A stretch of 62,326 nt of DNA, counting the filler. It is 9 parts of 9 records of this genome, joined end to end, with 100 filler letters (N's around TTAATTAATTAA, not from the genome) between each part and the next. Parts side by side here need not be neighbours in the genome. Positions count along the whole stretch, not along the records: positions 43,350 to 49,194 come from SRR31156797_73661; 8 more parts are not named here. The stretch is one strand, 5' to 3'. A program made the translations under genes and the position numbers. Below are positions 12,000 to 56,626 of the stretch, one piece after another (the stretch's first letter is position 1; the number at the start of each line of letters is the position of its first letter). The notes beneath the pieces were generated by a model. That model was not told where the DNA came from. It ran no database searches and saw only the letters and a list, made by a program, of their open reading frames with translations.

Positions 12000-12099
12000 N
12001 NNNNNNNNNNNNNNNNNNNNNNNNNNNNNNNNNNNNNNNNNNNTTAATTAATTAANNNNNNNNNNNNNNNNNNNNNNNNNNNNNNNNNNNNNNNNNNNN
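12000..12099. other. Artificial contig spacer (N44-TTAATTAATTAA-N44)
   Basis: The same spacer occurs at 18827-18926, 26799-26898, 32320-32419, 37628-37727, 43250-43349, 49195-49294 and 56228-56327. Confidence 0.99.
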
Positions 12100-12478: not shown

Positions 12479-13903
12479 TCAGGCCTCGCTCTTACGCCGG
12501 GCCACATACTGGTCAAGGGCTTCCGCGACCTGCGGATCCATCTCCGGCTTTTCATAGGCCCCCAGGCGCTGTTCCAGTTTTTCCGTGGCCGCCTCAGCAA
12601 TGGTTTTGCCGCCGTCCTTGTTCCAGCGGTTATTGTCCATTTTGCTGAACAGGTCGGTCTGGTAGAAGGCGTTCCGGCATTTGGCAAAGGTGGTGGGATG
12701 GGTCAGGTAGTTGCCGCCGATGCCCACGGATTTGATCACCTCCACGTCGATGCTGTCCGGGCTGATTTCAATGGGGGTAAGCATCTGGCGCACCATGCCG
12801 CACAGCTCCTCGTCAATGAGCCATTTTTCCATGTTGGTGCCGATATAGGTGCCCACCATGCCGCAGGCGTGGAGAATGAAATTGGCGCCGTTTCTCACGG
12901 AGGTGCTCAGGGTCAGGGCGCCTTCGGCCATGGCCTGGGCGTCGGGGACATGGGCATCGGTGAGGCCGCCGCCGGTGCGGCAGGGGACATTGTAGCGCCG
13001 TGCCAGCTGGGTGGTGGCGGAGTTGATGATATAGGTTTCCGGGGCGCCGATGGTGGCAGCCCCGGTTTGCATGTTCATGGGGCAGGAGGTGGTGCCGTAG
13101 ATCACCGGTGTGCCGGGGCCCGCCAGCTGGGCCAGGGTGATGCCCGCCAGGATCTCGGCGTTCATCAGGGCGATGAGCCCGGGCAGTCCCACCGGACCCG
13201 AGGTGCCGGCCATGATCATGTTGATGATGGCCATGGGCTGGCGGTGTTTCGCATAGGCCAGGATGGAGCCCGCCATCTCTTCCGCAAACTGGAGGGGGGA
13301 GAGGACGTTGATCAGGCCCACCATCACCGGCATGTCAATCAGTTTCTCCTTGCCGCCGAAGAGGATGCCGCACATCTCGATGGAATCCTTGGCCGCTTCC
13401 ACCGTATCGGTGCTGCCCATGAAGGGTTTGTCGCTGAGGGTCATGTTGGAATGGAGCATGTCAAGATAGGCGGTGCCGGTGGCCACGTCCGAGGGTTCCA
13501 CATTCTTGAAACCGTTCATGTCGATATGTTTGGAGGTGTGGACCAGCTTGCAGATGTTATCGTAGTCCTCCATGGTGCCCGGCCGCTGCTGACCATCCCG
13601 GGTCATCATGAAAGGGGAACCGTAGGTGGGCAGGAAAATGAAATCGTCTTCGCCGACATAGACGCTCTTTTCCGGGTCCCTTGCCGTGATCTTGAATCGG
13701 GACGGGGCGGTTTCCAGTGCCTTCAGCACTTGAGCCTCCGTGAAAAAGACGGTCTTTCCATCGATCTTGAAACCGTTCTGTTTGAAAAGTTCAAGGGCCC
13801 CTGCTTCATTAAACGCAACACCGGTGTTTTCGAGAATATCCATGGAGGCATGGTGGATGTGGTCCAACTCTTCACTGGTAAGGGTTTGCATTCGATCATA
13901 CAT
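12479..13903 (-). CDS. MttB-superfamily (non-pyrrolysine) quaternary amine:corrinoid methyltransferase, copy 2
   Basis: IHHASMDILENTGV, NAEILAG, PGTPVIYG, RTGGGLTD..PDAQA, ILHACG, IDEELCG, GIGGNYL. Confidence 0.93.
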   Translation of the reverse strand: MYDRMQTLTSEELDHIHHASMDILENTGVAFNEAGALELFKQNGFKIDGKTVFFTEAQVLKALETAPSRFKITARDPEKSVYVGEDDFIFLPTYGSPFMMTRDGQQRPGTMEDYDNICKLVHTSKHIDMNGFKNVEPSDVATGTAYLDMLHSNMTLSDKPFMGSTDTVEAAKDSIEMCGILFGGKEKLIDMPVMVGLINVLSPLQFAEEMAGSILAYAKHRQPMAIINMIMAGTSGPVGLPGLIALMNAEILAGITLAQLAGPGTPVIYGTTSCPMNMQTGAATIGAPETYIINSATTQLARRYNVPCRTGGGLTDAHVPDAQAMAEGALTLSTSVRNGANFILHACGMVGTYIGTNMEKWLIDEELCGMVRQMLTPIEISPDSIDVEVIKSVGIGGNYLTHPTTFAKCRNAFYQTDLFSKMDNNRWNKDGGKTIAEAATEKLEQRLGAYEKPEMDPQVAEALDQYVARRKSEA

Positions 13904-13986
13904 GGTGATTATCCTTTACTTATCTTCATTGTGATTCAATCTGCCCGGGTTCCCCCAGGGGCGGTCATTAACTGTCGATAGGGTAG

Positions 13987-14002
13987 TGCAATCGGTATGC
14001 CA
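13987..14002 (-). promoter_or_regulatory. sigma54 (-24/-12) promoter
   Basis: TGGCAT-ACCGA-TTGCA upstream of mttB copy 2. Confidence 0.85.
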
Positions 14003-14163
14003 TTTGCCGGCTTCGGGGTGATTTTACCCTGAAAATCCCCATTGGCAGGCTTCTTGGGCCATGGGGCCGGAATAAAAAAAATAAAAAACAGGTTTAAAAA
14101 GAACAAAAAATATAAAAAAACTAAAAATTATCAAAATGCAAAAAACTCAGAAAATTGATCGGG

Positions 14164-15765
14164 CTATTCCGGCCGGGGATTCACCCGGTCATATTCCTTT
14201 AAATTGCCCATGGCCTTGATATACCCGACGACCATCAGGATCTGGAGTACCAGAATGGGCAGGCCGCAGACAATGACGGAGGTCTGGAGGGCGCTGGCCC
14301 CGCCGCTGACCAGAAGCACCCAGGAGAAGCATCCCATGACCACCCCCCAGAAGATTTTCATTGCCGCCGGCGGCTCCTTGTCCTCCGGGGAGGTGCCGAA
14401 ATCCCGGGTGGTCATGGCGGCAATGGTGGAGGTCATTGAATCGGCCAGGGTGATGAAGGAGATGGCCACGGCCAGGATGCCCAGGACCATGGTCAGTCCC
14501 GGCAGGGGGAAATTCCGGAGCAGGGCGAACAGGGAGATCTCCTTGCCGTGCTCCGCAATGGCCTGGGCGATGCCGGCCCCGGTGAAATGATCCAGATAGA
14601 TGCTGGTGCTGCCGAAAATGCCGAACCAGACCATGCCGAAAACAGCGGGGCCGATGAGGTTCACCAGAACAAACTGGCGGATGGTCCGGCCGTATCCCAG
14701 GCGCACCAGGAAGAGTCCGACCACGGGGGCAAAGGCGATCCACCAGGCCCAGTAGAAATTGCTCCACTGGCCGGGCCAGCCGCTTTTGCCCATGGGGTCA
14801 AGATAGAAGGACATGGGAACCAGGTGGCCCAGGAAGTCTCCCACTGCGGTCACCGTGCTTTCGATCACGTGGATGGTGGGGCCGCAAAACAGGACAAAGG
14901 CCATGAGCAGGAAGTACAGCCGGATGTTGTTTTCACTCAATATCCGGATGCCCTTTTGAAGGCCGGTGTAACTGGAGACGGTGTAGCACAGGGTCAGGGC
15001 GACGATGATGAGCAGCCAGACAATCTGGTTGGGCTCGATGCCCCAGAGGAATTTCAGGCCCCCGCCGATCTGCATGGTCCCGAATCCCAGGGAGGTGCCC
15101 ACGCCGCCGACAATGGCGAAAATGGACAGGCCGTCCACCAGGTATCCCCAGTTGCCCTTGATCCGGTCGCCGATGAGGGGGTAGAGGCTGGAGCTGACCT
15201 TGAAGGGCTGGCCGGAATTGTAAAAGGCAAACCCGATGCAAAGGGCGGCGCTGACATAGATGCCGTAGGTGTGAAAGGTCCAGTGAAAAAAGGCATACCG
15301 CATGGCATGCTCTCCGGCGGCCAGGGAGCCGGGCTCATACCCCAGGAACGGCGGCGGGTTGGTGTAATGGGCCATGGGTTCGGCCACCCCGAAGAACACA
15401 ATGCCGATGGCCATGCCGGCGCAGATGGAGATGGCCCACCAGTTGAACAGGGATATTTCGGGCCGGGCGTCCGGCCCGCCCAGTTTGATGCTGCCGTACC
15501 GGCTGAACCCCGCCCAAAGGCAAAATCCCAGCAAAAAGGCGGAGCCCAGGGTGTAAAACCAGCCGAAATAGTTCAGGGTGAAGGAAAGGGCCGCGGACGC
15601 CCCTTTCCCAAAGGCTTCAGGGCTGATGATCCCGGTGATCACCGCAATGAGCAGAATCAGGGCCGGCGGGACGAAGATCTTTTTGTTGATGGCGGCGGCC
15701 AGGCCTTTTTTTTCGTTGTCTTTTCTTTCCCTCCTGTCATGTTGGATCGTGACGCTTGCTTCCAT
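14164..15765 (-). CDS. BCCT-family (betaine/carnitine/choline) transporter
   Basis: IKLGGPDARPE, GIVFFGVAEP, FFHW, KGIRILS, FYWAWWIAFAP, GRTIRQF. Confidence 0.95.
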   Translation of the reverse strand: MEASVTIQHDRRERKDNEKKGLAAAINKKIFVPPALILLIAVITGIISPEAFGKGASAALSFTLNYFGWFYTLGSAFLLGFCLWAGFSRYGSIKLGGPDARPEISLFNWWAISICAGMAIGIVFFGVAEPMAHYTNPPPFLGYEPGSLAAGEHAMRYAFFHWTFHTYGIYVSAALCIGFAFYNSGQPFKVSSSLYPLIGDRIKGNWGYLVDGLSIFAIVGGVGTSLGFGTMQIGGGLKFLWGIEPNQIVWLLIIVALTLCYTVSSYTGLQKGIRILSENNIRLYFLLMAFVLFCGPTIHVIESTVTAVGDFLGHLVPMSFYLDPMGKSGWPGQWSNFYWAWWIAFAPVVGLFLVRLGYGRTIRQFVLVNLIGPAVFGMVWFGIFGSTSIYLDHFTGAGIAQAIAEHGKEISLFALLRNFPLPGLTMVLGILAVAISFITLADSMTSTIAAMTTRDFGTSPEDKEPPAAMKIFWGVVMGCFSWVLLVSGGASALQTSVIVCGLPILVLQILMVVGYIKAMGNLKEYDRVNPRPE

Positions 15766-15868
15766 CTGTTTCTCCCTTGGGTCTGATCAGTTGAGCCGTC
15801 CTGTTTTTGACTTCCCCGGCCGGGTGGGCATTACATCCATGGCGCCTCCGGGCGGTCGGACAGGCGTT

Positions 15869-17317
15869 CTATTCCTTGGTGCCGCCGGTCGCCAGGAGCT
15901 CGTCCTTGCGGCGGCAGACATAGTCGAAAAGCGCGTTTTCAATATCCGGGTCGATCTCCGGTTTTTCATAGGATGCCAGCCGCTGGACCAGCCGGTCGTC
16001 CGCCACCTGGTCAACGGTTTTGCCGCCGTTGGTTTTCCATTTGGCCTGGTTGCCCTTATTGAAAATATCGGCCTGGAAAAAAGCCGTGCGGCAGTGTTTC
16101 AGGGTGGCCGGGTCCATGAGGTAATTACCGCCGATGCCCATGTCGTGAATGGCCTGGAGATCGATGGCCTCCCCGCTGAAATCCATGGGTTTCATCATCT
16201 CCCGGACCATGCCGCAGAGTTCCTCGTCAATCAGCCATTTTTCCAGGCTGTTGCCGATATAGGAGCCCATGGTACCGCAGGCGTGGAGTATAAAATGGGC
16301 GCCGTTGCGCACGGAGGTCAAAAGGGACAGGGCCCCCTCGGCCAGGGCCTGGGCATCCGGGACAAGGGAATCGGTCAGGGACCCCCCGGTCCGGCAGGGC
16401 AGTCCGTAATACCGGGCCAGCTGGGTGGTGGCGGAATTGATGATATGGGTCTCGGGGGCGCCGATGCTGGCCCCGCCGGTCTGCATATTGGTGGGGCAGG
16501 AGGAGGTGCCGTAGATCACCGGGGTGCCCGGTCCGGCCAGCTGGCTGAGCACCAGGCCCGCCAGGATCTCCGCATTCATCAATGCCAGAAGCCCCGGCAG
16601 CTGGATGGGACCGGAGGTGCCTGCCATGATCATGTTCACGATGATCAGCGGTTGCCGGTACCGGGCGAATTCAAGGATGGAACCGGCCATCTCCTCGGTA
16701 TACCGGAGGGGCGAAAAGGGGTTGATCAACCCGGCCATCACCGGCATCTCCTTGAGTTTCTCCTTTCCCCCGAAGACAAGCCCGGCCATTTCAACGCTGT
16801 CCCGTGCGGCCTCCCGGGTGTCGGTGCTGCCCATGAAGGGTTTGTCGCAAAGTACGATATTGGAAAAGAGCATGTACAGGTAAGCGGTGATGGGAGCGAT
16901 GTCGCTGGGCGCCACATGCTTGAACCCGTTCATGTCAATGTGTCTGGACGTCTGGACCAGTTTGCAGATTTTATCATAATCCTCCATGGCGCCCAGCCGC
17001 TGTTCCCCGCTTGGGTCACAAAGATAGGGGGCGCCGTAGGTGGGGGCGAATATCCAGTCATCCCCGCCGATGAAAACGCTTTTTTCCGGGTCCCTGGCAA
17101 AAAGTTTAAACCGGGACGGGGTGGTCCTCAGTGCGGCAGCGACCTGTTCTTCAGTGATAAAAACGGTGCCGTCGTCCGTTTTGAAGCCGTTCCGGGTGAA
17201 CAGGTCAATGGCGTCGGAGTCGTTAAAGGCGACCCCGGTCCGGTTCAGGATTTGAATGGATGCCTTGTGAATCCGTATCATTTCATCATGGGTCAAGGTC
17301 TGCATTCTGTCATACAT
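15869..17317 (-). CDS. MttB-superfamily (non-pyrrolysine) methyltransferase, copy 1
   Basis: Close paralog of 12479-13903; true start MYDRMQTL at 17317, downstream of the sigma54 promoter. Confidence 0.93.
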   Translation of the reverse strand: MYDRMQTLTHDEMIRIHKASIQILNRTGVAFNDSDAIDLFTRNGFKTDDGTVFITEEQVAAALRTTPSRFKLFARDPEKSVFIGGDDWIFAPTYGAPYLCDPSGEQRLGAMEDYDKICKLVQTSRHIDMNGFKHVAPSDIAPITAYLYMLFSNIVLCDKPFMGSTDTREAARDSVEMAGLVFGGKEKLKEMPVMAGLINPFSPLRYTEEMAGSILEFARYRQPLIIVNMIMAGTSGPIQLPGLLALMNAEILAGLVLSQLAGPGTPVIYGTSSCPTNMQTGGASIGAPETHIINSATTQLARYYGLPCRTGGSLTDSLVPDAQALAEGALSLLTSVRNGAHFILHACGTMGSYIGNSLEKWLIDEELCGMVREMMKPMDFSGEAIDLQAIHDMGIGGNYLMDPATLKHCRTAFFQADIFNKGNQAKWKTNGGKTVDQVADDRLVQRLASYEKPEIDPDIENALFDYVCRRKDELLATGGTKE

Positions 17318-17367: not shown

Positions 17368-17383
17368 TGCAACGGGTGTGCCA
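17368..17383 (-). promoter_or_regulatory. sigma54 (-24/-12) promoter
   Basis: TGGCAC-ACCCG-TTGCA. Confidence 0.88.
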
Positions 17384-18826: not shown

Positions 18827-18926
18827 NNNNNNNNNNNNNNNNNNNNNNNNNNNNNNNNNNNNNNNNNNNNTTAATTAATTAANNNNNNNNNNNNNNNNNN
18901 NNNNNNNNNNNNNNNNNNNNNNNNNN

Positions 18927-26272: not shown

Positions 26273-26898
26273 TTTTAAAATAGACAGATAGCAGGCCGCT
26301 GGGGCCACTCCTTGAAAGCTACCTGCCTTTTGCCCAGGCTGGTCATTTTTCATTTGCAGAGCAATTTTATCATAATAAAAAGCAATAACTCACCAGTGTT
26401 ACCTTCTTATCCAAGGTAAAATAATTAGTTCAATTTGTCTTTTACCCTGGTTGGTTTTCTCCTTTCTTGAGGCTGTCCACCTTAAGTGCCAACTAGGGTA
26501 TTTTTATTTCCAACCTTTTCCAGACCTACAGCACTCTGCAACGCTTCCCACCTGGAAACCAGACTTGACCAAGCACCTAATTTTTCATTATTTTCACCTT
26601 AACTGCACTTCATTTTCGGGTGTATGGTTTTCCTTATTCACTAACCCAAACAAGAGAAATACCAAATGCTTAACGCTTCACAAACAATTGCATACACATC
26701 ACCACACACCACCTGGAGCAAAGAAGAAAGAGAAGTGGTAAAGAAATTACGGCTCTCCCTCAAAGAAGGGGGATCAATTTATGGAAAGATTATTAACCNN
26801 NNNNNNNNNNNNNNNNNNNNNNNNNNNNNNNNNNNNNNNNNNTTAATTAATTAANNNNNNNNNNNNNNNNNNNNNNNNNNNNNNNNNNNNNNNNNNNN

Positions 26899-32319: not shown

Positions 32320-32419
32320 NNNNNNNNNNNNNNNNNNNNNNNNNNNNNNNNNNNNNNNNNNNNTTAATTAATTAANNNNNNNNNNNNNNNNNNNNNNNNN
32401 NNNNNNNNNNNNNNNNNNN

Positions 32420-37627: not shown

Positions 37628-37727
37628 NNNNNNNNNNNNNNNNNNNNNNNNNNNNNNNNNNNNNNNNNNNNTTAATTAATTAANNNNNNNNNNNNNNNNN
37701 NNNNNNNNNNNNNNNNNNNNNNNNNNN

Positions 37728-43249: not shown

Positions 43250-43349
43250 NNNNNNNNNNNNNNNNNNNNNNNNNNNNNNNNNNNNNNNNNNNNTTAATTA
43301 ATTAANNNNNNNNNNNNNNNNNNNNNNNNNNNNNNNNNNNNNNNNNNNN

Positions 43350-43631
43350 TGGCCCGGCAATGTGAGGGAGCTGAAGAACACGGTCCAGTACGCCGCGGCC
43401 CTCTCTGAGCGCCGGACCATCCTTCCCGAGGACCTGCCCGGCAGCTTGGCCGCCCGGGCAGGTCGGGACGGGGCCTTCGAAGGCAATGTCAGAGAGAGGG
43501 CCGAAAAGGATGTGATCCTCCAGACCCTGAGGAAAAACGGCTACAACAAGTCCAGAGCGGCGGCGGAACTGAATATGAGCCGCAAGACCCTCTATATAAA
43601 GATAGACAAGTATGGAATCGACTGCGGCTAG
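43350..43631 (+). CDS. sigma54-dependent activator C-terminus; 5' partial
   Basis: WPGNVREL, Fis HTH NKSRAAAELNMSRKTLY. Confidence 0.9.
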   Translation, partial: WPGNVRELKNTVQYAAALSERRTILPEDLPGSLAARAGRDGAFEGNVRERAEKDVILQTLRKNGYNKSRAAAELNMSRKTLYIKIDKYGIDCG

Positions 43632-45468
43632 ACGGATTTCCAGTCCCGAAGATGTGATCACCCTGGAGCACATCAGTCTGAAGAACCGCAGCCACTATGT
43701 TCTCAGGGATGTCAATCTTTCTCTCCGCTCCGGAGAGATCCATGCCCTTCTGGGGGGCAAGGGGAGCGGCAAATCTCCCATCGGCAATATCATCAACGGC
43801 TCCGCCAGGGCCGACGGCGGCCGCATCCTCTACTTCGGCGCGGACAGCAGGGAGTTCGGAAAAAAGGATCTGAAGCCGGTGATCGGCATGATCCATCAGA
43901 ACCGGACGGCCAATCCCCATTTCACGGTGTGGGAGCATCTCTACCATGACAACGGAAGCGCGTACAGGGGAGTCCTCCTTTCCAGGCGGAAGCTGATGCG
44001 GCGGGCCGCCTCCGTGCTCAGAGACTTCGGTCTCGAATTAGACGTCCATCAGAAGATCGAGGAGCTGGCGGAGCCGGATTACCTGATCCTGGAGCTGATC
44101 CGCCACTCCCTGAGGAATCCTGACGTACTGATCATCGACGAGGCCTTCTCTCAGCTCTCCCATCCCCATATCGACATCTTTACCCGCATCATCACGGGAC
44201 ACAAGGCAGAGGGGGTGGCCATCCTCTTCATCACCCACAATATCGAGCTGCTCTACGACTTCGCCGACAGGATCACCATCATACAGAACGGGAAAAACCT
44301 TTTTACCGGGCTCACCGGTTCCATCGACAAGATCAATATGATCCGCCTCACCTATACGGACAATACCCGGAGGGGCAGCGAGGACAGCGAGGAGGAGAAT
44401 TTTCACAGCTTCCTCCGCTACAACAAGGCCATACTGGAGGACCTTCCGGTGAGCCTTCTGGTTCTGGATGTGAACAATACGGTGATCATGGCCAACGAGT
44501 ACTTCGAGCATCAGATGCAGCTGGGGCCCAGGGAGTACAGGAACAGGCATATCCGCACTTTCTTCAACTGGCAGAGCGAGAGGATCATGAAGGCCCTGGG
44601 GGAGAGCCTGAAAAACCGCAAGCTCAAGACCCTCTACAACGTCCCCATTCAGATCCATGAGACCCAGACCATCAATACCATGAAGATCCTGCCCATCCAC
44701 GACGGCCTGAGGGCCCTGGGGCAGATCATCCTGATCGAGGATGTGACCGACTACTTCAAGTTCCAGAAGAAGATGATGCTCTCGGGCAATATGGAATCCA
44801 TCGGGATACTGGCCGCGGGGGTGGCCCATGAGATCAACAACTCCCTGGAGGTCGCCTTCAATTACATCCGCTACCTGAGCCAGGAGTTCAATTCCCCCGA
44901 TGCGGCGGAGCCCTTCAACGAGCTCCGTCAGGAGATGATCACCGTCAAGCAGGTGGTCTCCAAGCTGGCCAACTTCTCCGAAACCAATCTGCCCCAGGTC
45001 AGGAGTACGGACCTGAACACCCTGGTGGGGAATTTCGTCCGCCTCATTGAGAATACCATGGAGGAGGGGAAGGTGATTATCCACAGCCTCCTTTCAGACG
45101 AAGCTGTGATGACCATGATCAATCCCAATGAATTCCGGGAGATCCTGACCAATCTCGTGAAGAACAGCCGGGAGGTCCTGCCCAGGGGCGGGAACATCCG
45201 GATCCGGACGAAACTGCGCTACGGCGAGAGCGGGGTGAAGGCGGTTCTGTCGGTGGAAGACGACGGCCCCGGCATCGCGACCGACATGATGGAAACCGTC
45301 TTCCTGCCCTTCTACTCCACCAAGAAGAAAGATTCCGAGAACGTGGGGCTCGGGCTTTCGCTCTGTTACTCCATCGTGGACCGCTGCGGCGGGAGCATCT
45401 ATGCGGAGAATATCAAGCCCCGGGGCTGCCGCTTCACCATCGAACTTCCCGTGGCGTCAGACTCCTGA
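43612..45468 (+). CDS. Fusion of sugar-ABC ATPase domain + PAS + histidine kinase
   Basis: GEIHALLGGKGSGKS, LIIDEA, ITHN; PAS-like LPVSLLVLD..AN; H-box AGVAHEINN; NLVKNS, DDGPGI, PFYSTK, GLGLS. Confidence 0.88.
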   Translation: MESTAARRISSPEDVITLEHISLKNRSHYVLRDVNLSLRSGEIHALLGGKGSGKSPIGNIINGSARADGGRILYFGADSREFGKKDLKPVIGMIHQNRTANPHFTVWEHLYHDNGSAYRGVLLSRRKLMRRAASVLRDFGLELDVHQKIEELAEPDYLILELIRHSLRNPDVLIIDEAFSQLSHPHIDIFTRIITGHKAEGVAILFITHNIELLYDFADRITIIQNGKNLFTGLTGSIDKINMIRLTYTDNTRRGSEDSEEENFHSFLRYNKAILEDLPVSLLVLDVNNTVIMANEYFEHQMQLGPREYRNRHIRTFFNWQSERIMKALGESLKNRKLKTLYNVPIQIHETQTINTMKILPIHDGLRALGQIILIEDVTDYFKFQKKMMLSGNMESIGILAAGVAHEINNSLEVAFNYIRYLSQEFNSPDAAEPFNELRQEMITVKQVVSKLANFSETNLPQVRSTDLNTLVGNFVRLIENTMEEGKVIIHSLLSDEAVMTMINPNEFREILTNLVKNSREVLPRGGNIRIRTKLRYGESGVKAVLSVEDDGPGIATDMMETVFLPFYSTKKKDSENVGLGLSLCYSIVDRCGGSIYAENIKPRGCRFTIELPVASDS

Positions 45469-45611
45469 GGACCTGTTACCTTTTTTACCATTCCTCTGTA
45501 GAACTGTTACCTTAGGAAACAGTTTCTATAAGCCGCTGGGTAACGCTTTTCTTATGATGAAATAAATAAGATCTTTTAATGCAAGTGTTTAAATTGATTC
45601 CTTTTCTTTGT

Positions 45612-45627
45612 TGGCACGGCAATTGCA
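45612..45627 (+). promoter_or_regulatory. sigma54 (-24/-12) promoter
   Basis: TGGCAC-GGCAA-TTGCA, ending 45 nt before the ATG at 45673. Confidence 0.88.
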
Positions 45628-45672
45628 ATATGGGGAGGCATAAAGGCAAAGAAAAAACAGGAGTTGTTTTAA

Positions 45673-46974
45673 ATGGATAAAAGAGTCGAATCCTATATCG
45701 AAGAGATCAAAGCCAGGGGCGTTGAGCTGGAAGGCGCAGGCCGTTCCATGGTCTTCAAAGGCCCCGCCGGCGGCTGTATCAAGAAGACCGGTCCCCTGGC
45801 GGGCAAGCGGATAGGATGTCTGGTGGCCAGTGAGTTCAGCGACTTCCAGGCCTACTACATCGCCGCCTATATCGGTGAGTTCGGCGGCAAGCTGGATTTC
45901 ATCCTTGTGGACGAGATGACCTGGCACTGGACCCGGCCCAACAATACCAGGAAGGGCGTTCAGGGAATGTGGGGACTCAGCGTGGATCCCATTCCCGTGG
46001 GCGGCGGAGAGAAGGCCGATACGGCGCTCAGGGCCGATGACGCCAGGGCCTCCGACTATGACGCCCTGATCATCCTGGGCGGTCCCTCCGGAGACATCAT
46101 GTCCACCGTGGATTCGGTCAAGAATCTGCTGAAGGACGTGTATGACGCGGGCGGTCTGGTCGGCGGTATCGGAGGCGGAATCATTCCCCTTCTCACCATC
46201 GGACTGACAAACGGCAAGAAGTGCACCGGCAACGAGCAGGTCGACTTTATTCTGAGAAACACCGCTGATTTCACCGACTCTCCCTGTGAGATAGATCAGA
46301 GAGTGTTGACCGCTAAGAACACTATCGACACACCCGAGTTCGTCTCCTCCCTCTGCCGTTACTTCGATCCGGGGTGGAAGGATACCCGCAAGGGCATGCT
46401 GGCGGGTAAGACCATGATGCTCATCGCCGGATGGGACTTCGAGGATTTCGAGATCGCCGTCCCCTTCCTGGAGTTCTACCACCGCGGCGCCTCCCTGATG
46501 ATCGGTACCTTCACCGGATGCATGAGGAACCGTCCCGCCCTGCTGGGCATGGATGTGGTGCAGGGCAACTTCGGCATGACCGTTCCCCTTCAGGAGGTCC
46601 CGGGGGATCTCTATACCGTCAAGGATCTGAAGGATATCAGCCAGAGAGAGATCGACGGGCTAATGATTCCCGGCGCCTTCTGCCCCTGGAATATGATCGA
46701 AGCGAAATACCCTCTCCAGTTCCTGCGGGATGCGGACAGGGCAAAGAATATGGTGGCCTTTATGTGCCACGGCCCCATAGCCGTTGCGGCTTCGGGCATC
46801 GCCGAGGGCCGGAAGTCCACGGGCTGGATCTCCTGCAAGCCCTCCTTCGATGCGGTGGGCGGTGAGTTCAGCAACCAGTGGTTCTCCACCATCGACGACC
46901 ATATCGTCTCCGGAAAAACAACCCCCGAACTGCCCGAGTTCATCGATGCCATGACCCTGGGGCTTCTGCTGTGA
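45673..46974 (+). CDS. Tandem DJ-1/PfpI-domain protein
   Basis: Two repeats: EFSDFQ..YDALIILGG..TPEF and DFEDFE..DGLMIPG..MCHGP..LPEF. Confidence 0.85.
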   Translation: MDKRVESYIEEIKARGVELEGAGRSMVFKGPAGGCIKKTGPLAGKRIGCLVASEFSDFQAYYIAAYIGEFGGKLDFILVDEMTWHWTRPNNTRKGVQGMWGLSVDPIPVGGGEKADTALRADDARASDYDALIILGGPSGDIMSTVDSVKNLLKDVYDAGGLVGGIGGGIIPLLTIGLTNGKKCTGNEQVDFILRNTADFTDSPCEIDQRVLTAKNTIDTPEFVSSLCRYFDPGWKDTRKGMLAGKTMMLIAGWDFEDFEIAVPFLEFYHRGASLMIGTFTGCMRNRPALLGMDVVQGNFGMTVPLQEVPGDLYTVKDLKDISQREIDGLMIPGAFCPWNMIEAKYPLQFLRDADRAKNMVAFMCHGPIAVAASGIAEGRKSTGWISCKPSFDAVGGEFSNQWFSTIDDHIVSGKTTPELPEFIDAMTLGLLL

Positions 46975-47978
46975 GCGACAAGATGAAGGCCGTGGTGATC
47001 GACCGGCCCGGCAGCGTAAAGGTCGTCCGGAAGGATGTCCCCGTACCGGCCCCCGACGAGGTGCTGATCCGGGTGCAGTACGCCGGGATCTGTTCCACCG
47101 ACTCCATGATCCTGGCCGGAATATACAGCAAAGAGTGCCTGCCCATGGTTCCGGGACATGAGTTTATCGGCCGTATCGCCGAAACCGGCAGCGCCGTCAG
47201 GGGATGGAAGGCGGGCGACTATGTGACCGCGGATATCAACATCGGCTGCGGCACCTGCCGCTACTGCCTGAGGAACCAGCCCCTTGCCTGCGCGGACATC
47301 AGGCAGCTGGGGATACACAGGGACGGCGGATTCGCAGAGTATCTGACCGTACCGGCGGGCAAGCTGATCCGCCTGGGCGGAACGGCCGATCCGAAGGAGT
47401 ACGCCCTGGCGGAGCCCCTTTCCAATGTGGTCCGCTCCCTGGAGCGCTGCGGCTCCCTTCTGGGACGCTCGGCGGCGGTGCTGGGAAACAACTTCCTGAG
47501 CCTGCTGCACGTACAGATGCTGCGGCTGGCCGGGGCCTGGCCGGTGGTCATGGTGAGCGATGACGAGGAGGCCGGAAGGCTGGGGAAGGAGCTGGGAGCC
47601 GACAGGGTGCTGCCCTATGAGAGCGAGTCGGGAGAGTACGACTTCGTTTTCGAGACCGAGGGAAGCGCCGCTTCCTACAATACGGCCCATACCCTGACCG
47701 CTCCCGGCGGACATGTGATGGCCTTCGGGATTCCCCCTGCGGGGATAATGGCCGCCTACGAACCCTTTGCCATGGTGCTGAAGGAACAGGGCGTCCTCTC
47801 CTCGGTGGCGGGTGCCGGTCCGGATGTTCTGGACGCCGTCTCCCTGATCGAGTCGGGCCGTCTGGATCTCTCGCCCTGGACGAAAACCGTCCTTCCCCTG
47901 GAGGAGGCGGGACGGGGCATGGACCTGATGGAAATGGATAAGAACGTGTTCAAGGTACTTTTAGAGGTGAATGTATGA
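46971..47978 (+). CDS. Zn-dependent (sugar/polyol) dehydrogenase, MDR family
   Basis: GICSTD, GHE, CGTCRYC..C, DGGFAEY, EP. Confidence 0.92.
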   Translation: MSDKMKAVVIDRPGSVKVVRKDVPVPAPDEVLIRVQYAGICSTDSMILAGIYSKECLPMVPGHEFIGRIAETGSAVRGWKAGDYVTADINIGCGTCRYCLRNQPLACADIRQLGIHRDGGFAEYLTVPAGKLIRLGGTADPKEYALAEPLSNVVRSLERCGSLLGRSAAVLGNNFLSLLHVQMLRLAGAWPVVMVSDDEEAGRLGKELGADRVLPYESESGEYDFVFETEGSAASYNTAHTLTAPGGHVMAFGIPPAGIMAAYEPFAMVLKEQGVLSSVAGAGPDVLDAVSLIESGRLDLSPWTKTVLPLEEAGRGMDLMEMDKNVFKVLLEVNV

Positions 47979-49194
47979 GGGAAGACAATATTCTGGAAAT
48001 GAAGGGAATCGTCAAGACCTTTCCCGGTGTGAAGGCCTTGAACGGCGTTTCCTTCTCCTGCAGGAAGGCCGAGGTCCACGCCCTTCTGGGCGAGAACGGC
48101 GCGGGCAAGTCCACGCTGATCAAGGTCCTCAGCTCGGCCTACCAGCCCGACGGCGGGGAGATCGTATTCAAGGGCAGACCCTACAGGCATCAGGATCCCA
48201 TATCCGCCCAGAGGGCGGGGATAGGGGTGATCTACCAGGAGTTCAACCTGGTTCCCCATCTGACGGTGGCGGAGAACATCTTCCTGGGACGGGAACCGCA
48301 AAAGGCCTCCGGCCTGATCGACAGGGCCTTTATGAGGAGCAAGTCCGCCGAGGTTCTCACCTCCCTGGGGCTGAAGATATCCGTTGATGTTCCGGCCCTG
48401 AGGCTGAGCGTCGCCGAGCAGCAGATGGTGGAGATCGCCAAGGCCCTCTCCATGAATGCGGAGCTGATCGTTATGGACGAGCCCACGGCCACCCTGACGG
48501 ACAGGGAGATCGACTTCCTGTTCCAGATCATCCGCAAGCTGAAAGAGCAGGGGAAGACGGTGATCTACATCTCCCACAGGCTGGAGGAGATCTTTGAGAT
48601 CTGCGACCGGGTGACGGTCCTCAAGGACGGCAGCTACGTGGGTTCCCGGGACGTGGCGGAGATGGACAAGGACGGACTGATCAGCATGATGGTCGGCCGG
48701 ACCCTTGAGGACTACTTCCCCGAGAAGCAGTCCCTTAAGGGAAAAAAGGTCCTGGAGGTGAGAAAGCTCAATCAGAAGGGTGTGCTTCACGACATCTCCT
48801 TTGATGTTTGCGAGGGCGAGATCCTGGGGCTTTCGGGCTTGGTGGGCGCCGGACGGACCGAGCTGGCCCGCGCCATATTCGGGGCCGATTCCTTTGACTC
48901 GGGAGAGATCCTGATAGACGGCGAGGCCGTTACCATAAGGAATCCCAGCGACGCCATTGAAAAGAAGATCGGTTTCGCCACGGAAGACAGGAAACGGCAG
49001 GGCCTTATCCTGGGGCTTTCCATCCAGAAGAATATGACCCTTTCCATCCTGGACAAGCTCAGGAAGTGGGGATTCCTCAAGCTGAAAGAGGAGGCGGGGC
49101 TGGTGGACTCCTTTATCGGGCAGCTGAAGATCGCCGCCCGGGACCAGGAGGTCAAGGTGAAGACCCTCAGCGGGGGGAATCAGCAGAAGGTCGT
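47975..49194 (+). CDS. Monosaccharide ABC ATPase (RbsA/MglA type); 3' partial
   Basis: GENGAGKSTL, MDEPT, GLVGAGRTE, EDRK, LSGGNQQKV. Confidence 0.95.
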
Positions 49195-49351
49195 NNNNNN
49201 NNNNNNNNNNNNNNNNNNNNNNNNNNNNNNNNNNNNNNTTAATTAATTAANNNNNNNNNNNNNNNNNNNNNNNNNNNNNNNNNNNNNNNNNNNNAGATTG
49301 GGAAAAATAACCATTTATGGACGAGCATTAAAAATTTGGGAGGATTGAAAT

Positions 49352-50422
49352 ATGAAGGTTTGGAAGCGTTTTCTTATGGTGTTATTCGCGGTCGTCCTGG
49401 TCTTTTCTCTACAGGCGGCGCCGGCCAAGGCCAAGGAATTCAAAATGACTATCGTAGCCGGGCATCCGCCCATATTCCTGTGGGTGTCCATGGCCAAGGA
49501 CTTCTACATTCCGGAAGTCAACAAGAGGCTTGCGGCTGAAGGCAAGCACACGATCAAGTGGAACCAGGCATACGGCGGAACAGTGGCCAAAATTGGAGGC
49601 GTGTTGGAAGCCCTTGAAGAAGGCATCGCCGACATGGGTTTTGTCAGTTCTCTTTTTGAAGCCCCGAAAATGCCTCTTCATAATGTCAGCTACATGACTC
49701 CTTTCGGCACAAGCAACATATTCACGGTCGTTGACACCATTTCCTCCCTTCAAGCCAAAATCCCGGCCCTGAGCCAGGAATGGGAAAAACACAACATCGT
49801 TTACCTGGGCGGAGCAGCCCTGGATACGTACGGCATTCTGACCAACTTCCCCGTTAAAACGGTTGACGACCTCAAGGGGCACAAGATAGCCGCTCCCGGC
49901 CCGGCTGCCAACTGGATCAAGGGCACGGGCGCCGTGGCCGTGGCCGGTAACCTGAACACCTACTACAACGACATCAAAACAGGCGTGTATGAAGGCACCC
50001 TGACTTTCATGACCGCTGCCGCCGCCGGCAAGCTGCATGAAGTCGCCCCGTACGTCTGCATGGTCAATTTCGGCGCCCAATACGCCGGAGGGCTTGGAGT
50101 AAACAAGGATGTCTGGGAATCCCTGCCGCCTGAAGTCCAGAAGGTGCTTAAGGATGTCGGCCAGGAATATATGAAAAAACTGGCCCAGGCCCAGGCCGAC
50201 CGCGCGGCCGGAGCTATGAAAATGATGGAAAAAGGCGGCGCCAAGATAGTTTACCTGTCGGACGCAGAACGTAAACGCTGGGCCGACATGCTGCCTAACG
50301 TCCCCATGAACTGGGCCGCGGCCATGGAAAAGAAAGGCCTGCCCGGCAAGGAAATGGTTAAAGGCTACCTGGACGGCATTCGCGCCGGCGGCGAAACTTT
50401 GGCCAGGGATTGGGATAAATAA
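49352..50422 (+). CDS. dctP: TRAP transporter substrate-binding protein
   Basis: Signal peptide; GIADMG, DDLKGHKI, NKDVWESLPPEVQ. Confidence 0.9.
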   Translation: MKVWKRFLMVLFAVVLVFSLQAAPAKAKEFKMTIVAGHPPIFLWVSMAKDFYIPEVNKRLAAEGKHTIKWNQAYGGTVAKIGGVLEALEEGIADMGFVSSLFEAPKMPLHNVSYMTPFGTSNIFTVVDTISSLQAKIPALSQEWEKHNIVYLGGAALDTYGILTNFPVKTVDDLKGHKIAAPGPAANWIKGTGAVAVAGNLNTYYNDIKTGVYEGTLTFMTAAAAGKLHEVAPYVCMVNFGAQYAGGLGVNKDVWESLPPEVQKVLKDVGQEYMKKLAQAQADRAAGAMKMMEKGGAKIVYLSDAERKRWADMLPNVPMNWAAAMEKKGLPGKEMVKGYLDGIRAGGETLARDWDK

Positions 50423-50424
50423 GA

Positions 50425-50994
50425 ATGTCTGACAACATCGGAGCGGCGCCGGATAAAACCCGGCGCCGCCGGTTCTCTTACGAGTCCATAACTTCGGTTA
50501 TGGACACCATAGGAACCGCCTGGGTTTTTGTTCTTCTGGTAATTATCAACATGGACATCATCGGCCGGGCCGTATTCAATCACCCCATAAGAGGCGTTCC
50601 CGAAATCGTGTCCATGTCCATTGTGGCCCTGGTTTTCCTCCAGATAGCCCACACACTCAGCGTCGGCCGCCTGACCAGGTCCGAAGTTCTTCTCAATGTA
50701 CTCTTTAAAAGAAAACCCGGCCTGGGCTACTTTTTACAGGGAATTTACCATTTAACCGGCGCGGCCCTCTTTATCATCCTCTTCTGGGCCAGCCTGCCCA
50801 TGTTCACCAAAGCCTGGAAAATAAACGAATACGTAGGGGCTGAAGGCGACTTCATGGCCCCGGTCTGGCCGGTTAAATTGATCATTCTGATAGGCTGCGC
50901 CGCGGCCTGCATACAGTTTCTACTAATGGCCGGCAAGGATTTCCGGAACATAAAATCAGGCTCCGGCTCGTCTGCTGCGGATGGAGGCCGGTAA
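50425..50994 (+). CDS. dctQ: TRAP small permease
   Basis: DIIGRAVFNHPIRGVPEI; four TM segments. Confidence 0.9.
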   Translation: MSDNIGAAPDKTRRRRFSYESITSVMDTIGTAWVFVLLVIINMDIIGRAVFNHPIRGVPEIVSMSIVALVFLQIAHTLSVGRLTRSEVLLNVLFKRKPGLGYFLQGIYHLTGAALFIILFWASLPMFTKAWKINEYVGAEGDFMAPVWPVKLIILIGCAAACIQFLLMAGKDFRNIKSGSGSSAADGGR

Positions 50995-52313
50995 TGACGG
51001 ATCTTCAAATTGGATTGTTATCAATTCTCGGAATCTTGTTCCTGATATACGCGGGCATGCACGTCAGCATCGCCTTGGGGCTTCTTTCATTCCTGGGCGT
51101 GTACCTGATCAGGGATAACTTTACTATTGCCAGTAAACTGTTGGCCCTGGCCGCGGCGGACAGTATTTCCAAATATGAATTCGGGGTGGTGCCTCTTTTC
51201 GTTCTCATGGGCATGTTCATATCAGTGTCTGAAATAGGCAAGGACACATTTGACGTGGCCAACCGGCTTTTTAGAGGCATCCGCGGCGGCCTGGGCATTG
51301 CCACGGTAGCCGCCAACGCCGTCTTTGCCGCGGTCACAGGCATCTCCATTGCCTCGGCCGCAGTCTTCACCAAGGTGGCCGTCCCTGAAATGACCAGGCT
51401 GGGATACAATCCTCGTTTCGCCGTGGGCGTTGTCACAGGATCCTCGGTCCTGGGAATGCTTATTCCGCCCAGCCTCTTGCTCATCCTTTTCGGCGTATTG
51501 ACCGAAACCTCGGTCGGGGACCTGTTCAAAGCCGGCATTTTACCGGGCATTCTATTATCAGTAGCTTTTTCAGCCTTAATCCTGGTCATGGCTTACCGCT
51601 GGCCGAATTCAGTCGGCGGCGATCCCGAGGCCCTCAAAGCCGATAAATCTGCTCAAATGACCGCCCTGGCCGCTATCTGGAAAATCATCCCTATTGTCGC
51701 ACTGGTCGCGCTTGTTTTGGGCGGCATCTACGCCGGGTGGTTCACGCCCACTGAATCCGGCGCAGTAGGCGCCCTGGGCGCTCTTATTCTGGCCATTGGT
51801 AAAAGACGCATGACCCTGCCCAGACTCTGGCAAGTCCTGGTTGAAACCGGTCATGTAACCGTCTCAATCCTGTTTCTGATTATTTCCGCAAATATGTACG
51901 GACGCATGCTCGCCCTTTCCGGAATCACCAATTTCATCGCCACCTGGATAACTGAATCCGGACTCGGGCTTTATCCGTTTGTTACCATTTATATTTTAAT
52001 CGTTCTTATGATGGGCACCATCCTGGACTCAACGTCAATTATGATGATCGTGGTCCCGCTGGTCTATCCCATACTTGAACCCATGCAGATAAACTACGTC
52101 TGGTTCGGTTTGGTCACTGTCGTGGCCATCGAAGTCGGACTGCTTACTCCTCCGCTGGGCATTGCTGCATATGTGGTTAAAAGCACCCTGGACGACCAGC
52201 GGATCACCTTGAATGACGTCTTTGCAGGAGCGTTTCCATTTGTCCTGATAATGGTGCTGGTGCTGGCCCTGATCGTGATCTTCCCGCAGATAAGCCTGTT
52301 TTTGGTTGGTTAA
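50994..52313 (+). CDS. dctM: TRAP large permease
   Basis: VPLFVLMG, LGMLIPPS, FTPTE, GLLTPPLG. Confidence 0.95.
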   Translation: MTDLQIGLLSILGILFLIYAGMHVSIALGLLSFLGVYLIRDNFTIASKLLALAAADSISKYEFGVVPLFVLMGMFISVSEIGKDTFDVANRLFRGIRGGLGIATVAANAVFAAVTGISIASAAVFTKVAVPEMTRLGYNPRFAVGVVTGSSVLGMLIPPSLLLILFGVLTETSVGDLFKAGILPGILLSVAFSALILVMAYRWPNSVGGDPEALKADKSAQMTALAAIWKIIPIVALVALVLGGIYAGWFTPTESGAVGALGALILAIGKRRMTLPRLWQVLVETGHVTVSILFLIISANMYGRMLALSGITNFIATWITESGLGLYPFVTIYILIVLMMGTILDSTSIMMIVVPLVYPILEPMQINYVWFGLVTVVAIEVGLLTPPLGIAAYVVKSTLDDQRITLNDVFAGAFPFVLIMVLVLALIVIFPQISLFLVG

Positions 52314-56227: not shown

Positions 56228-56626
56228 NNNNNNNNNNNNNNNNNNNNNNNNNNNNNNNNNNNNNNNNNNNNTTAATTAATTAANNNNNNNNNNNNNNNNN
56301 NNNNNNNNNNNNNNNNNNNNNNNNNNNTCTGAACACTCATTTTTATCTTCGTTCATTACATTCCTTTCAAATTTTAAAGCCCGTAATATAACCACGATTT
56401 CAGGAAAAAAACAAAGAATTAAAAAGTGTGTGTAACGGGGTGGCTGTAATCTGTTTCTGGGTGTGTAATGGGTGTCATCGGGATTTACATGAATGATGTA
56501 ACAGGGGTTGTGGTTTTATTTATTGTTTCAATAGGTTATCAAAAATAAGCTGCCCTTGGTGGCAGCGTACAAGCTGTCCTTTAGGTGGGGTCGTTTTTAT
56601 CATTCAAAAAGCGAATCAATTCACCT

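Follow-up and report, generated by a model that had tools for sequence, protein, structure and literature searches.

The stretch of DNA analyzed here, which we call the window (62,326 nucleotides (nt)), contains at positions 43,350 to 49,194 a gene for a soluble histidine kinase whose N-terminal third is a nucleotide-binding domain (NBD) of the ATP-binding cassette (ABC) type. The window is a pseudo-molecule in which nine contigs are joined by 100-nt spacers, with N runs around TTAATTAATTAA, and positions 43350-49194 correspond exactly to one 5,845-nt contig (SRR31156797_73661), a short contig from a metagenome-assembled genome. The G+C content of the window's contigs spans 0.36-0.61 (2-kb bins), and because nine contigs of such widely differing G+C are joined, gene neighborhood across the spacers is meaningless. 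On the contig itself, the stop codon of a truncated gene whose product is a bEBP (bacterial enhancer-binding protein), a sigma54 activator of the NtrC type, sits 20 nt inside the kinase open reading frame (ORF), so the kinase ATG overlaps the end of the activator gene. A 204-nt repeat-bearing spacer lies between the kinase gene and the next gene and holds a sigma54-type promoter and a candidate upstream activator sequence (UAS); three genes on the same strand complete the contig (Table 1). The dehydrogenase ORF opens with a GTG at 46878, and its probable start, judging from the translation and the end of the preceding gene, is the ATG at 46983. The last gene encodes a sugar ABC ATPase of the CUT2 family, for which RbsA is the best NCBIfam model at 470.6 bits (AraG, 462 bits); this score lies under the cut-off of 745 bits because the contig end truncates the gene. 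The contig carries no permease or binding-protein gene. Three consecutive ORFs at 49352-52313 resemble a TRAP-type transporter by eye (binding protein, small and large membrane subunits), and since they lie on a different contig they are unrelated to the kinase.

Table 1. Features of the contig at 43350-49194, domains of the kinase it encodes, and spacers of the window. Coordinates count along the window and residues along the kinase; DHp, helical hairpin carrying the phospho-acceptor histidine; CA, catalytic ATP-binding domain; pLDDT, predicted local distance difference test.
Feature	Position in window	Strand	Evidence or detail
sigma54 activator (NtrC-type bEBP), 3' end, last 93 codons	43350..43631	+	AAA_lid_14 3.3e-11, HTH_8 2.3e-14; gene cut by contig start
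Fusion histidine kinase, 618 amino acids	43612..45468	+	ABC_tran + PAS + HisKA + HATPase_c, soluble
Kinase: ABC NBD and former inter-NBD linker helix, residues 14-248	43651..44355	+	AlphaFold2 pLDDT 84-93; Foldseek LptB; NCBIfam YtfR/AraG/AlsA
Kinase: NBD motif positions			Walker A G48-S55; Q96; signature position L152 (LAEPDYL); Walker B D176-E177; H209; linker D239...Y248
Kinase: acidic low-confidence connector, residues 249-261	44356..44394	+	pLDDT <50 for residues 250-261
Kinase: PAS domain, residues 262-377	44395..44742	+	PAS_4 275-379, AlphaFold2 secondary structure, Foldseek 4gcz 3e-23
Kinase: DHp helical hairpin, residues 379-456	44746..44979	+	helices 379-425 and 429-456; phospho-acceptor His406 (codon 44827-44829) in AHEINN
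Kinase: CA domain, residues 468-614	45013..45453	+	HATPase_c 3.2e-21
Candidate enhancer (UAS)	45465..45524	+	direct repeat + palindrome, predicted
sigma54-type -24/-12 promoter TGGCACGGCAATTGCA	45612..45627	+	exact TGGCAC-N5-TTGCA
Tandem DJ-1/PfpI-domain protein, 433 amino acids, first gene of sigma54 operon	45673..46974	+	PF01965 9.4e-34, 2 stretches
Zn-dependent alcohol/sugar dehydrogenase	46983..47978	+	ADH_N 1.4e-28, ADH_zinc_N 5.9e-13
RbsA-type (CUT2) tandem-NBD sugar ABC ATPase	47975..49194	+	ABC_tran 6.9e-49, 2 stretches; cut after 406 codons by contig end
Spacers	12000-12099, 18827-18926, 26799-26898, 32320-32419, 37628-37727, 43250-43349, 49195-49294, 56228-56327		

We scanned the kinase against Pfam and found clear matches to ABC_tran at residues 31-179 (71.7 bits, cut-off 25) and to HATPase_c at residues 505-615 (76.3 bits, cut-off 26.4). 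The matches to PAS_4 (275-379, 19.4 bits) and HisKA (400-456, 16.7 bits) fall under the Pfam cut-offs in the window copy, but in its relatives PAS_4 or PAS scores above 30 bits and HisKA scores 30-60 bits. The kinase NBD reaches the gathering score of ABC_tran and has a Walker A box (GGKGSGKS), a Q-loop, a Walker B box and an H-loop; it lacks the canonical LSGGQ signature and a SALD-type D-loop. We measured conservation in 119 homologues for the NBD motifs and in a 29-sequence alignment for the kinase core. In the latter, H406, E407, I408, N409 and N410 are invariant in 29/29 sequences, as are the CA-domain residues N514, N518, D550, G552, G554, F567, G579 and G581 of the N, G1, F and G2 boxes. 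Thus, the H-box, the CA-domain boxes and a response regulator encoded alongside are all in place for a histidine kinase. The highest 19-residue Kyte-Doolittle mean in the window kinase is 1.27, with no transmembrane segment, and 18 of the 119 homologues exceed 1.6, nearly all of them at hydrophobic PAS strands around residues 340-358. Therefore, the kinase is soluble.

The AlphaFold2 model of the kinase, built from the 29-sequence alignment, has a mean pLDDT of 78 and a predicted TM-score (pTM) of 0.43. The NBD (residues 11-248) is modeled confidently, with block means mostly of 84-93, and the PAS domain, the two-helix DHp domain and the CA domain are also folded. When the model was compared with known structures using Foldseek, the C-terminal two thirds matched kinases with PAS or LOV domains (4gcz at 3e-23, ThkA, ZraS) and the N-terminal third matched isolated NBDs, among them LptB (6mbn, TM-score 0.83 on the target). 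A sequence search of the Protein Data Bank with the NBD and the Foldseek search with the whole model returned generic ABC NBDs and PAS-kinases only, with no chain that contains both; the same searches yielded no CUT2 transporter complex from which the residues of the coupling groove could be defined.

With a contig of only 5.8 kb that derives from a metagenome-assembled genome, an assembly chimera or a frameshift artefact might have joined an ABC ATPase gene to a kinase gene. The following observations refute this, and we attach practically no weight to it. When 5.8 billion clustered proteins were searched, the 120 homologues listed, with identities between 94% and 25%, each combined PF00005 with histidine-kinase domains; a length of 560-720 amino acids (aa) is seen in 118, and some lie on contigs of 4.0, 5.4 and 10 Mb. 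Where source names are present, they are mostly Spirochaetia, Spirochaetales, Treponema and Oceanispirochaeta, and also candidate division KSB3 and Spartobacteria. The junction itself is conserved. From 12 sequences we built a profile of 88 columns that runs from the final strands of the NBD across the linker to the first elements of the PAS fold, and compared it with 1.84 billion representatives of 50%-identity clusters. It matched 964 proteins at E<=1e-3, of which 214 reach E<=1e-10. Among the best 150 junction matches, 105 are 585-660 aa long, 41 are shorter and probably fragments, and 4 are longer; a Walker A box lies within the first 90 residues in 100 of the 105, and 96 have an H-box. 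(A junction word search, with 75 candidates and 12 matches, was too insensitive to gauge the size of the family and was superseded by the profile.) At least 14 of 401 sampled genomes of one phylum, that of genome G001, have a full-length match at E<=1e-45; this figure is a minimum, as scoring was limited to three candidates in each genome. In the ESM Atlas, the kinase falls (score 0.99) in a 62-member cluster with ABC_tran in 100%, HisKA in 98% and HATPase_c in 98% of its members. Finally, contigs from the Logan collection bridge the junction: record 18 of the independent run X3 spans 44189-44568 with zero differences, and a record of run X1, which is possibly the source of the contig, spans 43350-44786. 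In run X2, from another study, two records abut with a 30-nt overlap at 44342-44371.

Several further database observations concern the kinase and its distribution. A metatranscriptomic (RNA) run, X6, contains identical contigs over 44584-44747, which codes for part of the PAS domain, and over 45465-45692, which covers the spacer, the promoter and the first DJ-1/PfpI codons; DNA carry-over is possible in this run. The runs that contain most of the stretch are labelled as coral metagenome or are coded; runs X4, X5 and X7-X12 contain little or none of it and were left out of the comparison. The ESM Atlas also holds clusters from Actinomycetota with ABC_tran, HisKA and GAF_2 (852 aa with 166 members, and 826 aa with 64 members; score 0.83) and a 515-aa ABC_tran and HisKA cluster of 136 members from Spirochaetota (score 0.83), all of which we treat as no more than leads. 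An NBD and a kinase may have been fused on more than one occasion.

To place the input domain among ABC ATPases, we compared it with both halves of the RbsA-type neighbors. Against NBD1 the window NBD reaches 112 bits at 29.6% identity, and against NBD2 it reaches 48.9 bits; the same preference holds in 119/119 kinases, with mean best scores of 142 and 70 bits, respectively. The best NCBIfam ABC models are all of the CUT2 family (YtfR, AraG, AlsA, LsrA, MglA, XylG and GguA), and the kinase aligns to model positions ~1-240 of ~500; none of these models reaches its cut-off on the kinase (YtfR, 113 vs 850 bits; AraG, 108 vs 689 bits). Residues 269-616 match positions 268-610 of the AtoS model. 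These alignments indicate that the input module is NBD1 plus the inter-NBD linker of a CUT2 ATPase of the RbsA/YtfR/AraG type, grafted onto an AtoS-like PAS-DHp-CA core. Ranked among 11 neighbor ATPases by similarity to the kinase NBD, a kinase's own neighbor contributes an NBD1 that comes 3, 3, 7, 1, 1, 9, 4, 7, 4, 1 and 4. Since kinase NBDs show no special likeness to the NBD1 next door, the fusion looks old rather than like a recurrent local copy, and a recent local duplication of the NBD1 of the neighboring rbsA gene, which we had also considered, is ruled out by the same ranks.

The motifs of the kinase NBD are best understood against those of 13 RbsA-type neighbor ATPases, drawn from related loci (L001-L116) and from the window. 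In these, NBD1 has GENGAGKST, DEPT and SH together with a non-canonical signature, LS[VI][AG]xxQ, and is followed by an MMVGR linker, while NBD2 has the canonical LSGGNQQK, an arginine or glutamine in place of the Walker A lysine (GAGRTE) and no H-loop histidine. Therefore, each of these ATPases has one consensus and one degenerate ATP site. In the kinase family, the Walker A residues G48, G53, K54 and S/T55 are present in 119/119 sequences, the Walker B aspartate D176 in 119/119 and E177 in 111/119, the Q-loop glutamine Q96 in 116/119 and the H-loop histidine H209 in 104/119. At the signature position, L152 is kept in 115/119, and a serine follows it in 42/119 only. The linker residues D239 and Y248 are found in 109/119 and 117/119, and E108 and N109, which follow the Q-loop at positions conserved in the 13 neighbor NBD1s, are kept at 83% and 78%. 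Relative to these NBD1s, the kinases have lost the N-terminal KxFPG (lysine 0%, proline 0%) and the Q-loop glutamate (12%), the residues after Walker B read [AVI][LSF][ES]K-L in place of PT..L, and MMVGR of the CUT2 linker has become L[TA]YTQ. Mean pairwise identity is 38-41% in the RecA-like parts of the NBD, 47% in DHp, 38% in CA and 30.1% in PAS.

We then turned to the gene neighborhoods of relatives, namely 12 full-length fusion genes from six genomes (loci L001, L002, L003, L004, L014 and L111-L116). A first search for loci, by the H-box pattern GV[AG]HEINN, returned 80, of which 6 hold full-length fusions; the other 74 hold ordinary kinases and were left out. ORFs were taken from a simple ORF caller and scanned against Pfam, and the kinase and activator of L113 were assigned by hand. 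A gene for a REC-Sigma54_activat-HTH_8 protein lies immediately upstream on the same strand in 12/12 loci and often overlaps the kinase start. In 11 of the 12, the kinase-activator pair is adjoined by a CUT2 set with a Peripla_BP_1 or Peripla_BP_4 binding protein and a tandem-NBD ATPase of ~500 aa; the exception is L002, which ends 44 nt after the kinase. A BPD_transp_2 permease was recognized in 8 loci, and the ORFs taken as permease in L113 and L116b, with no Pfam match at 1e-8, were left out of the permease alignment. Catabolic genes accompany the CUT2 sets (FGGY kinases, dehydrogenases, an aldolase and glycosidases). Paralogues number 3 in genome G001, 3 in G005 and 2 in G003, each beside a different transporter.

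The promoter sequences are consistent with this arrangement. In the window, TGGCACGGCAATTGCA stands 61 nt before the DJ-1/PfpI start, with the -24 GG, the -12 GC and the TGGCAC-N5-TTGCA spacing of a sigma54 promoter and with a bEBP gene nearby, so that it is a strong candidate on sequence grounds. It is one of 2 exact matches in the window; allowing up to one mismatch there are 4 matches against 1.42 expected from shuffles. In 200,855 nt of related loci, searched on both strands, TGGC[AC][CT]N5T[TC]GC[ATC] occurs 11 times against ~2.3 expected by chance if equal base frequencies are assumed, and for 8 of the 11 matches the transporter operon next to the kinase begins 48-215 nt further on. Three loci have no strict match, and there a variant that differs at one position occupies the equivalent place. 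The candidate UAS of the window lies ~90-150 nt upstream of the promoter. It is made up of a direct repeat (18 nt, 31 nt apart, ending in CTGTTACCTT) and a palindrome of 11 nt based on CTGTTACC. In 5 of 12 promoters (the window, L001, L004, L114 and L115), which come from different phyla, CTGTTAC/GTAACAG half-sites recur at distances of 60-160 nt upstream of the -24/-12 element. These repeats and half-sites are plausible candidates for activator-binding sites. Together, the kinase and the NtrC-type activator encoded upstream of it are predicted to form a two-component system beside the sigma54 promoter of an operon for sugar uptake and catabolism. We regard the family, its circuit and the origin of its input domain, as described here, as very likely correct.

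An earlier sequence-only reading of this contig had described much of this: the 618-aa ORF with its four domains and no transmembrane segment, the parallel between its N-terminus and the NBD1 and linker of RbsA-type ATPases, the retained Walker A, Walker B and H-loop beside a divergent signature (LAEPDYL), the overlap with a sigma54 activator gene, and a perfect -24/-12 promoter heading a PfpI/dehydrogenase/sugar-ABC operon. These descriptions are borne out, with the PAS and HisKA assignments resting on the clearer matches in relatives, and the peptides quoted are present (GEIHALLGGKGSGKS, SIDKINMIRLTY, AHEINN and LAEPDYL in the kinase; AEVHALLGENGAGKS, LSVAEQQ and EMDKDGLISMMV in the neighboring ATPase). 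The synteny with bEBP and CUT2 genes that it proposed to check extends to 12/12 and 11/12 loci, and the fusion point that it described is bridged by the X3 contig and shared by plentiful full-length homologues.

Some features of these loci are recorded for completeness. A second exact TGGCAC-N5-TTGCA lies on another contig of the window at 17368-17383 (-), with near matches at 13987 and 28192, and the sigma54 regulon of the organism is probably wider. At other loci the palindromes upstream of the promoter differ, for instance GGGGAATTTTTCCCC in L014. In the KSB3 locus L001, two genes downstream of the kinase, an 879-aa protein with methyl-accepting chemotaxis protein (MCP) signalling and Peripla_BP_4 domains is encoded at 13702-16338 (-), and its domain content marks it as a putative chemoreceptor with a CUT2-type binding domain. 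An ORF with an Ntox23 toxin domain (1e-15; L113:4616-5482 (+)) and an Hcp protein with collagen repeats (T6SS_HCP 1e-29; L116:3925-4986 (-)) each lie a few kb from a fusion kinase, probably by coincidence.

How might an NBD without a partner NBD in the same chain serve as the input of a kinase? We tentatively propose, with some doubt, that it is a sensor that docks on the permease of the cognate CUT2 transporter and reports the state of that transporter. Taken as a dimer, the kinase would present two NBD1-like domains, and these would dock on the cytoplasmic coupling sites of an RbsC-type permease dimer. Engagement of a sugar-loaded binding protein, or the transport cycle, would drive ATP-dependent closing and opening of the NBDs; the conserved linker (IDKxNLIxLxYT) and then the PAS domain would hand this movement on to the DHp helices, where it would set the autophosphorylation of His406. 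The strict linkage of one kinase to one transporter, the origin of the NBD from the very subunit that natively binds this permease family and the retention of the Q-loop region all speak for docking. We also count in its favor that a kinase with no membrane segment would otherwise be blind to external sugar.

We used ESMFold2 to predict a complex of the kinase NBD with a cognate permease. Because the window contig lacks a permease gene, the prediction was made for a relative, L004, with the kinase NBD (residues 1-240), two copies of the neighboring permease and each partner supplied as an alignment. The complex scored 0.50, which is graded as weak support, and the best of 3 controls scored 0.00. 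At least 81% of contacts are shared between the runs, and the pLDDT of the partner is at least 78. In calibration, 116 of 157 solved complexes and 2 of 215 mismatched pairs attained the mark; with scores of 0.60 or below, only 18 of the 157 solved complexes did so, along with both of the mismatches that passed. Given that NBD-permease complexes have already been solved, a pass may reflect likeness only. The sequence-only reading had gone on to suggest that the kinase docks on the sugar permease through its own NBD and reads transport directly; the fusion, the NBD1 origin and the pairing with a sigma54 activator in that reading stand, and docking and the reading of transport keep the status of a suggestion.

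A number of observations weigh against a transporter-docked sensor. The ESMFold2 docking score was obtained on a relative rather than on the window's own pair, and it was run without RbsA as a positive control. Every adjacent transporter that we examined has its own complete tandem-NBD ATPase, and therefore no vacant NBD site is evident. The signature of the window copy, LAEPDYL, is degenerate, and motifs of NBD-NBD contact have been lost across the family (second signature glutamine, 4%; proline and threonine after Walker B, 1% and 0%; lysine of the N-terminal KxFPG, 0%). Together with the motifs that are kept, these losses indicate that the residues for ATP binding and catalysis are constrained and that the contact motifs for a partner NBD have changed. 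The helical subdomain, at 26.8% mean pairwise identity, is the most divergent part of the kinase; partner-specific divergence and relaxed constraint would each account for this. The sequences give no clear hint that the kinase NBD is matched to the local transporter, and the PAS domain could be the true ligand sensor. One form of docking is that the kinase dimer replaces RbsA on a fraction of the permease dimers, giving a dedicated and possibly non-transporting sensor complex that signals external sugar, and this we consider conceivable but on the unlikely side. If it were true, binding protein, permease and NBD-kinase would make up a "sensor transporter" that borrows the conformational coupling of an ABC importer, newly made RbsA would compete the kinase off and so provide built-in feedback, and the Actinomycetota clusters with ABC_tran, GAF and HisKA would be independent inventions of the same principle.

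The CUT2 linkage can also be accommodated without any contact between kinase and transporter. NBDs of non-transport ABC proteins close on ATP and open on hydrolysis or ADP, and the paired NBDs of the kinase dimer might likewise gate the kinase as an ATP switch or sensor of energy state. The sugar operon would then be induced only at a suitable nucleotide status, with the CUT2 link reflecting the regulated target and the source of the domain only. The solubility of the kinase and its conserved ATP-binding and catalytic residues agree with such a switch, as do the diverged signature and D-loop motifs, which are common in regulatory ABC sites, the ATPase that each transporter keeps for itself and the failure of the kinase NBD to track its neighbor's NBD1. 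However, a generic energy sensor needs no separate paralogue beside each transporter, and the sites of a homodimer would pair a consensus P-loop with a degenerate signature, which is unfavorable to efficient ATP-driven closure. The Q-loop glutamine, moreover, usually couples an NBD to a membrane domain, and it is kept in nearly all of the kinases (116/119). On balance, we judge the switch unlikely. In another view, the kinase NBD would pair with NBD2 of the RbsA-type ATPase instead of the permease; it has exactly the half-site that NBD2 complements: among the 13 neighbors, NBD1 has the consensus Walker A, Walker B and H-loop, and NBD2 has the canonical signature. By pairing with NBD2 the kinase would borrow LSGGNQQK, complete its own ATP site and so sense the engagement of the ATPase. 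Yet NBD1 and NBD2 of RbsA share one chain, so the kinase must displace a tethered partner, and no NBD2-only gene was seen in the loci examined; we consider this pairing very improbable.

The remaining alternative assigns sensing to the PAS domain, which would bind a cytoplasmic sugar or metabolite and leave the NBD either an accessory role (dimerization, localization or ATP-dependent tuning) or none, as the slowly decaying remnant of a fusion. A PAS domain is the classic ligand-binding input of AtoS/NtrB-like kinases, the core of the fusion kinase matches AtoS from PAS onward, and PAS is the second most divergent domain, as would be expected if paralogues bind different ligands. Against this, strong purifying selection acts on the catalytic motifs of the NBD across 119 sequences whose overall identity is just ~35%, and therefore the NBD is not a remnant; the near-invariant residues of the linker between NBD and PAS (D239 and Y248) further suggest that a signal passes through it. 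We hold this alternative to be quite unlikely.

We found no description of an ABC NBD-PAS-kinase architecture in the full-text literature searched, from which subscription journals are largely absent, and an earlier description is possible. PMC2853384 tabulates Pfam counts, and these are irrelevant to the architecture. Public databases name the homologues automatically only, for example as "ATP-binding cassette domain-containing protein". This is a real, conserved and apparently uncharacterized family of histidine kinases with NBD input, wired to sigma54-dependent CUT2 sugar operons. It would add the ABC NBD to the input domains of histidine kinases. A natural fusion of ABC motor, PAS and kinase would offer a compact, soluble and genetically tractable model of how nucleotide-driven NBD movement is converted into kinase output. 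As the kinase is wired in a fixed manner to an NtrC-type activator, a sigma54 promoter and a CUT2 operon, a simple reporter read-out is at hand. Since members occur in sequences that their source names Oceanispirochaeta crateris, with two paralogues (P0062 and P0074) in one of them, experiments in an isolate may be possible.

The fusion kinase combines parts of two well-known protein classes. Like the CUT2 ATPases (RbsA, YtfR, AraG, AlsA, MglA, XylG and LsrA), it has at residues ~14-250 an NBD1 and linker with Walker A, Q-loop, Walker B and H-loop; unlike them, it lacks NBD2, and KxFPG, the signature QQ, DEPT and MMVGR are replaced. It thus has neither the two tandem NBDs and ~500-aa length of a CUT2 ATPase nor an above-cut-off score. 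With kinases of the AtoS/NtrB/ZraS type it shares the PAS-DHp-CA core, the HEINN H-box and a REC-AAA+-HTH_8 partner, whereas AtoS has transmembrane and HAMP input segments that the fusion kinase lacks. Its score against the AtoS model (NF008468) is 182 bits, from the PAS-DHp-CA part only, with a cut-off of 646, and therefore it is not an AtoS orthologue.

Sensing through transporters has precedents and is a topic of active research. In the BceS-BceAB bacitracin system of Bacillus subtilis, flux is sensed by a membrane kinase with two transmembrane helices that is bound to an ABC transporter. The likeness lies in a kinase without a ligand-binding sensor domain of its own that probably senses how active an ABC transporter is and that induces the transporter genes. 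The Bce kinase, however, is a separate protein that contacts the permease within the membrane, BceAB is exporter-like and has a large extracellular loop, and the system uses an OmpR-type regulator and sigma70 promoters; the fusion kinase is soluble, lacks the two transmembrane helices, carries its NBD in the same chain and is paired with a sigma54 activator, and the transporter beside its relatives is a CUT2 sugar importer with a binding protein and BPD_transp_2. In the PstSCAB-PhoU-PhoR system for phosphate, the PAS domain of a kinase likewise receives the state of an importer NBD (PstB), but the route runs through a separate adaptor, PhoU, to a membrane-anchored kinase, where the fusion kinase has the NBD covalently joined to PAS by a conserved linker. 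In the maltose system of E. coli, the importer ATPase subunit MalK conveys transporter idleness or activity to MalT, the activator of the same regulon; it does so by sequestering MalT via an extra C-terminal regulatory domain, with neither kinase nor fusion involved. DctA-DcuS is another known case. In all of these systems, to our knowledge, sensor and transporter are separate proteins, and their contact is hard to capture. The fusion kinase would act in the manner of Bce, Pst-PhoU-PhoR and MalK-MalT, yet it belongs to none of them. In Ks-Amt5 of 'Candidatus Kuenenia stuttgartiensis', an ammonium-transporter domain is reported to be fused to a histidine kinase (PMC5764959), so that there, as in the fusion kinase, a transporter-derived module is joined to a histidine kinase as a sensor. 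The module of Ks-Amt5 is a membrane-integral domain that binds the substrate, whereas that of the fusion kinase is a cytoplasmic motor, blind to the substrate and in need of a partner or of nucleotide.

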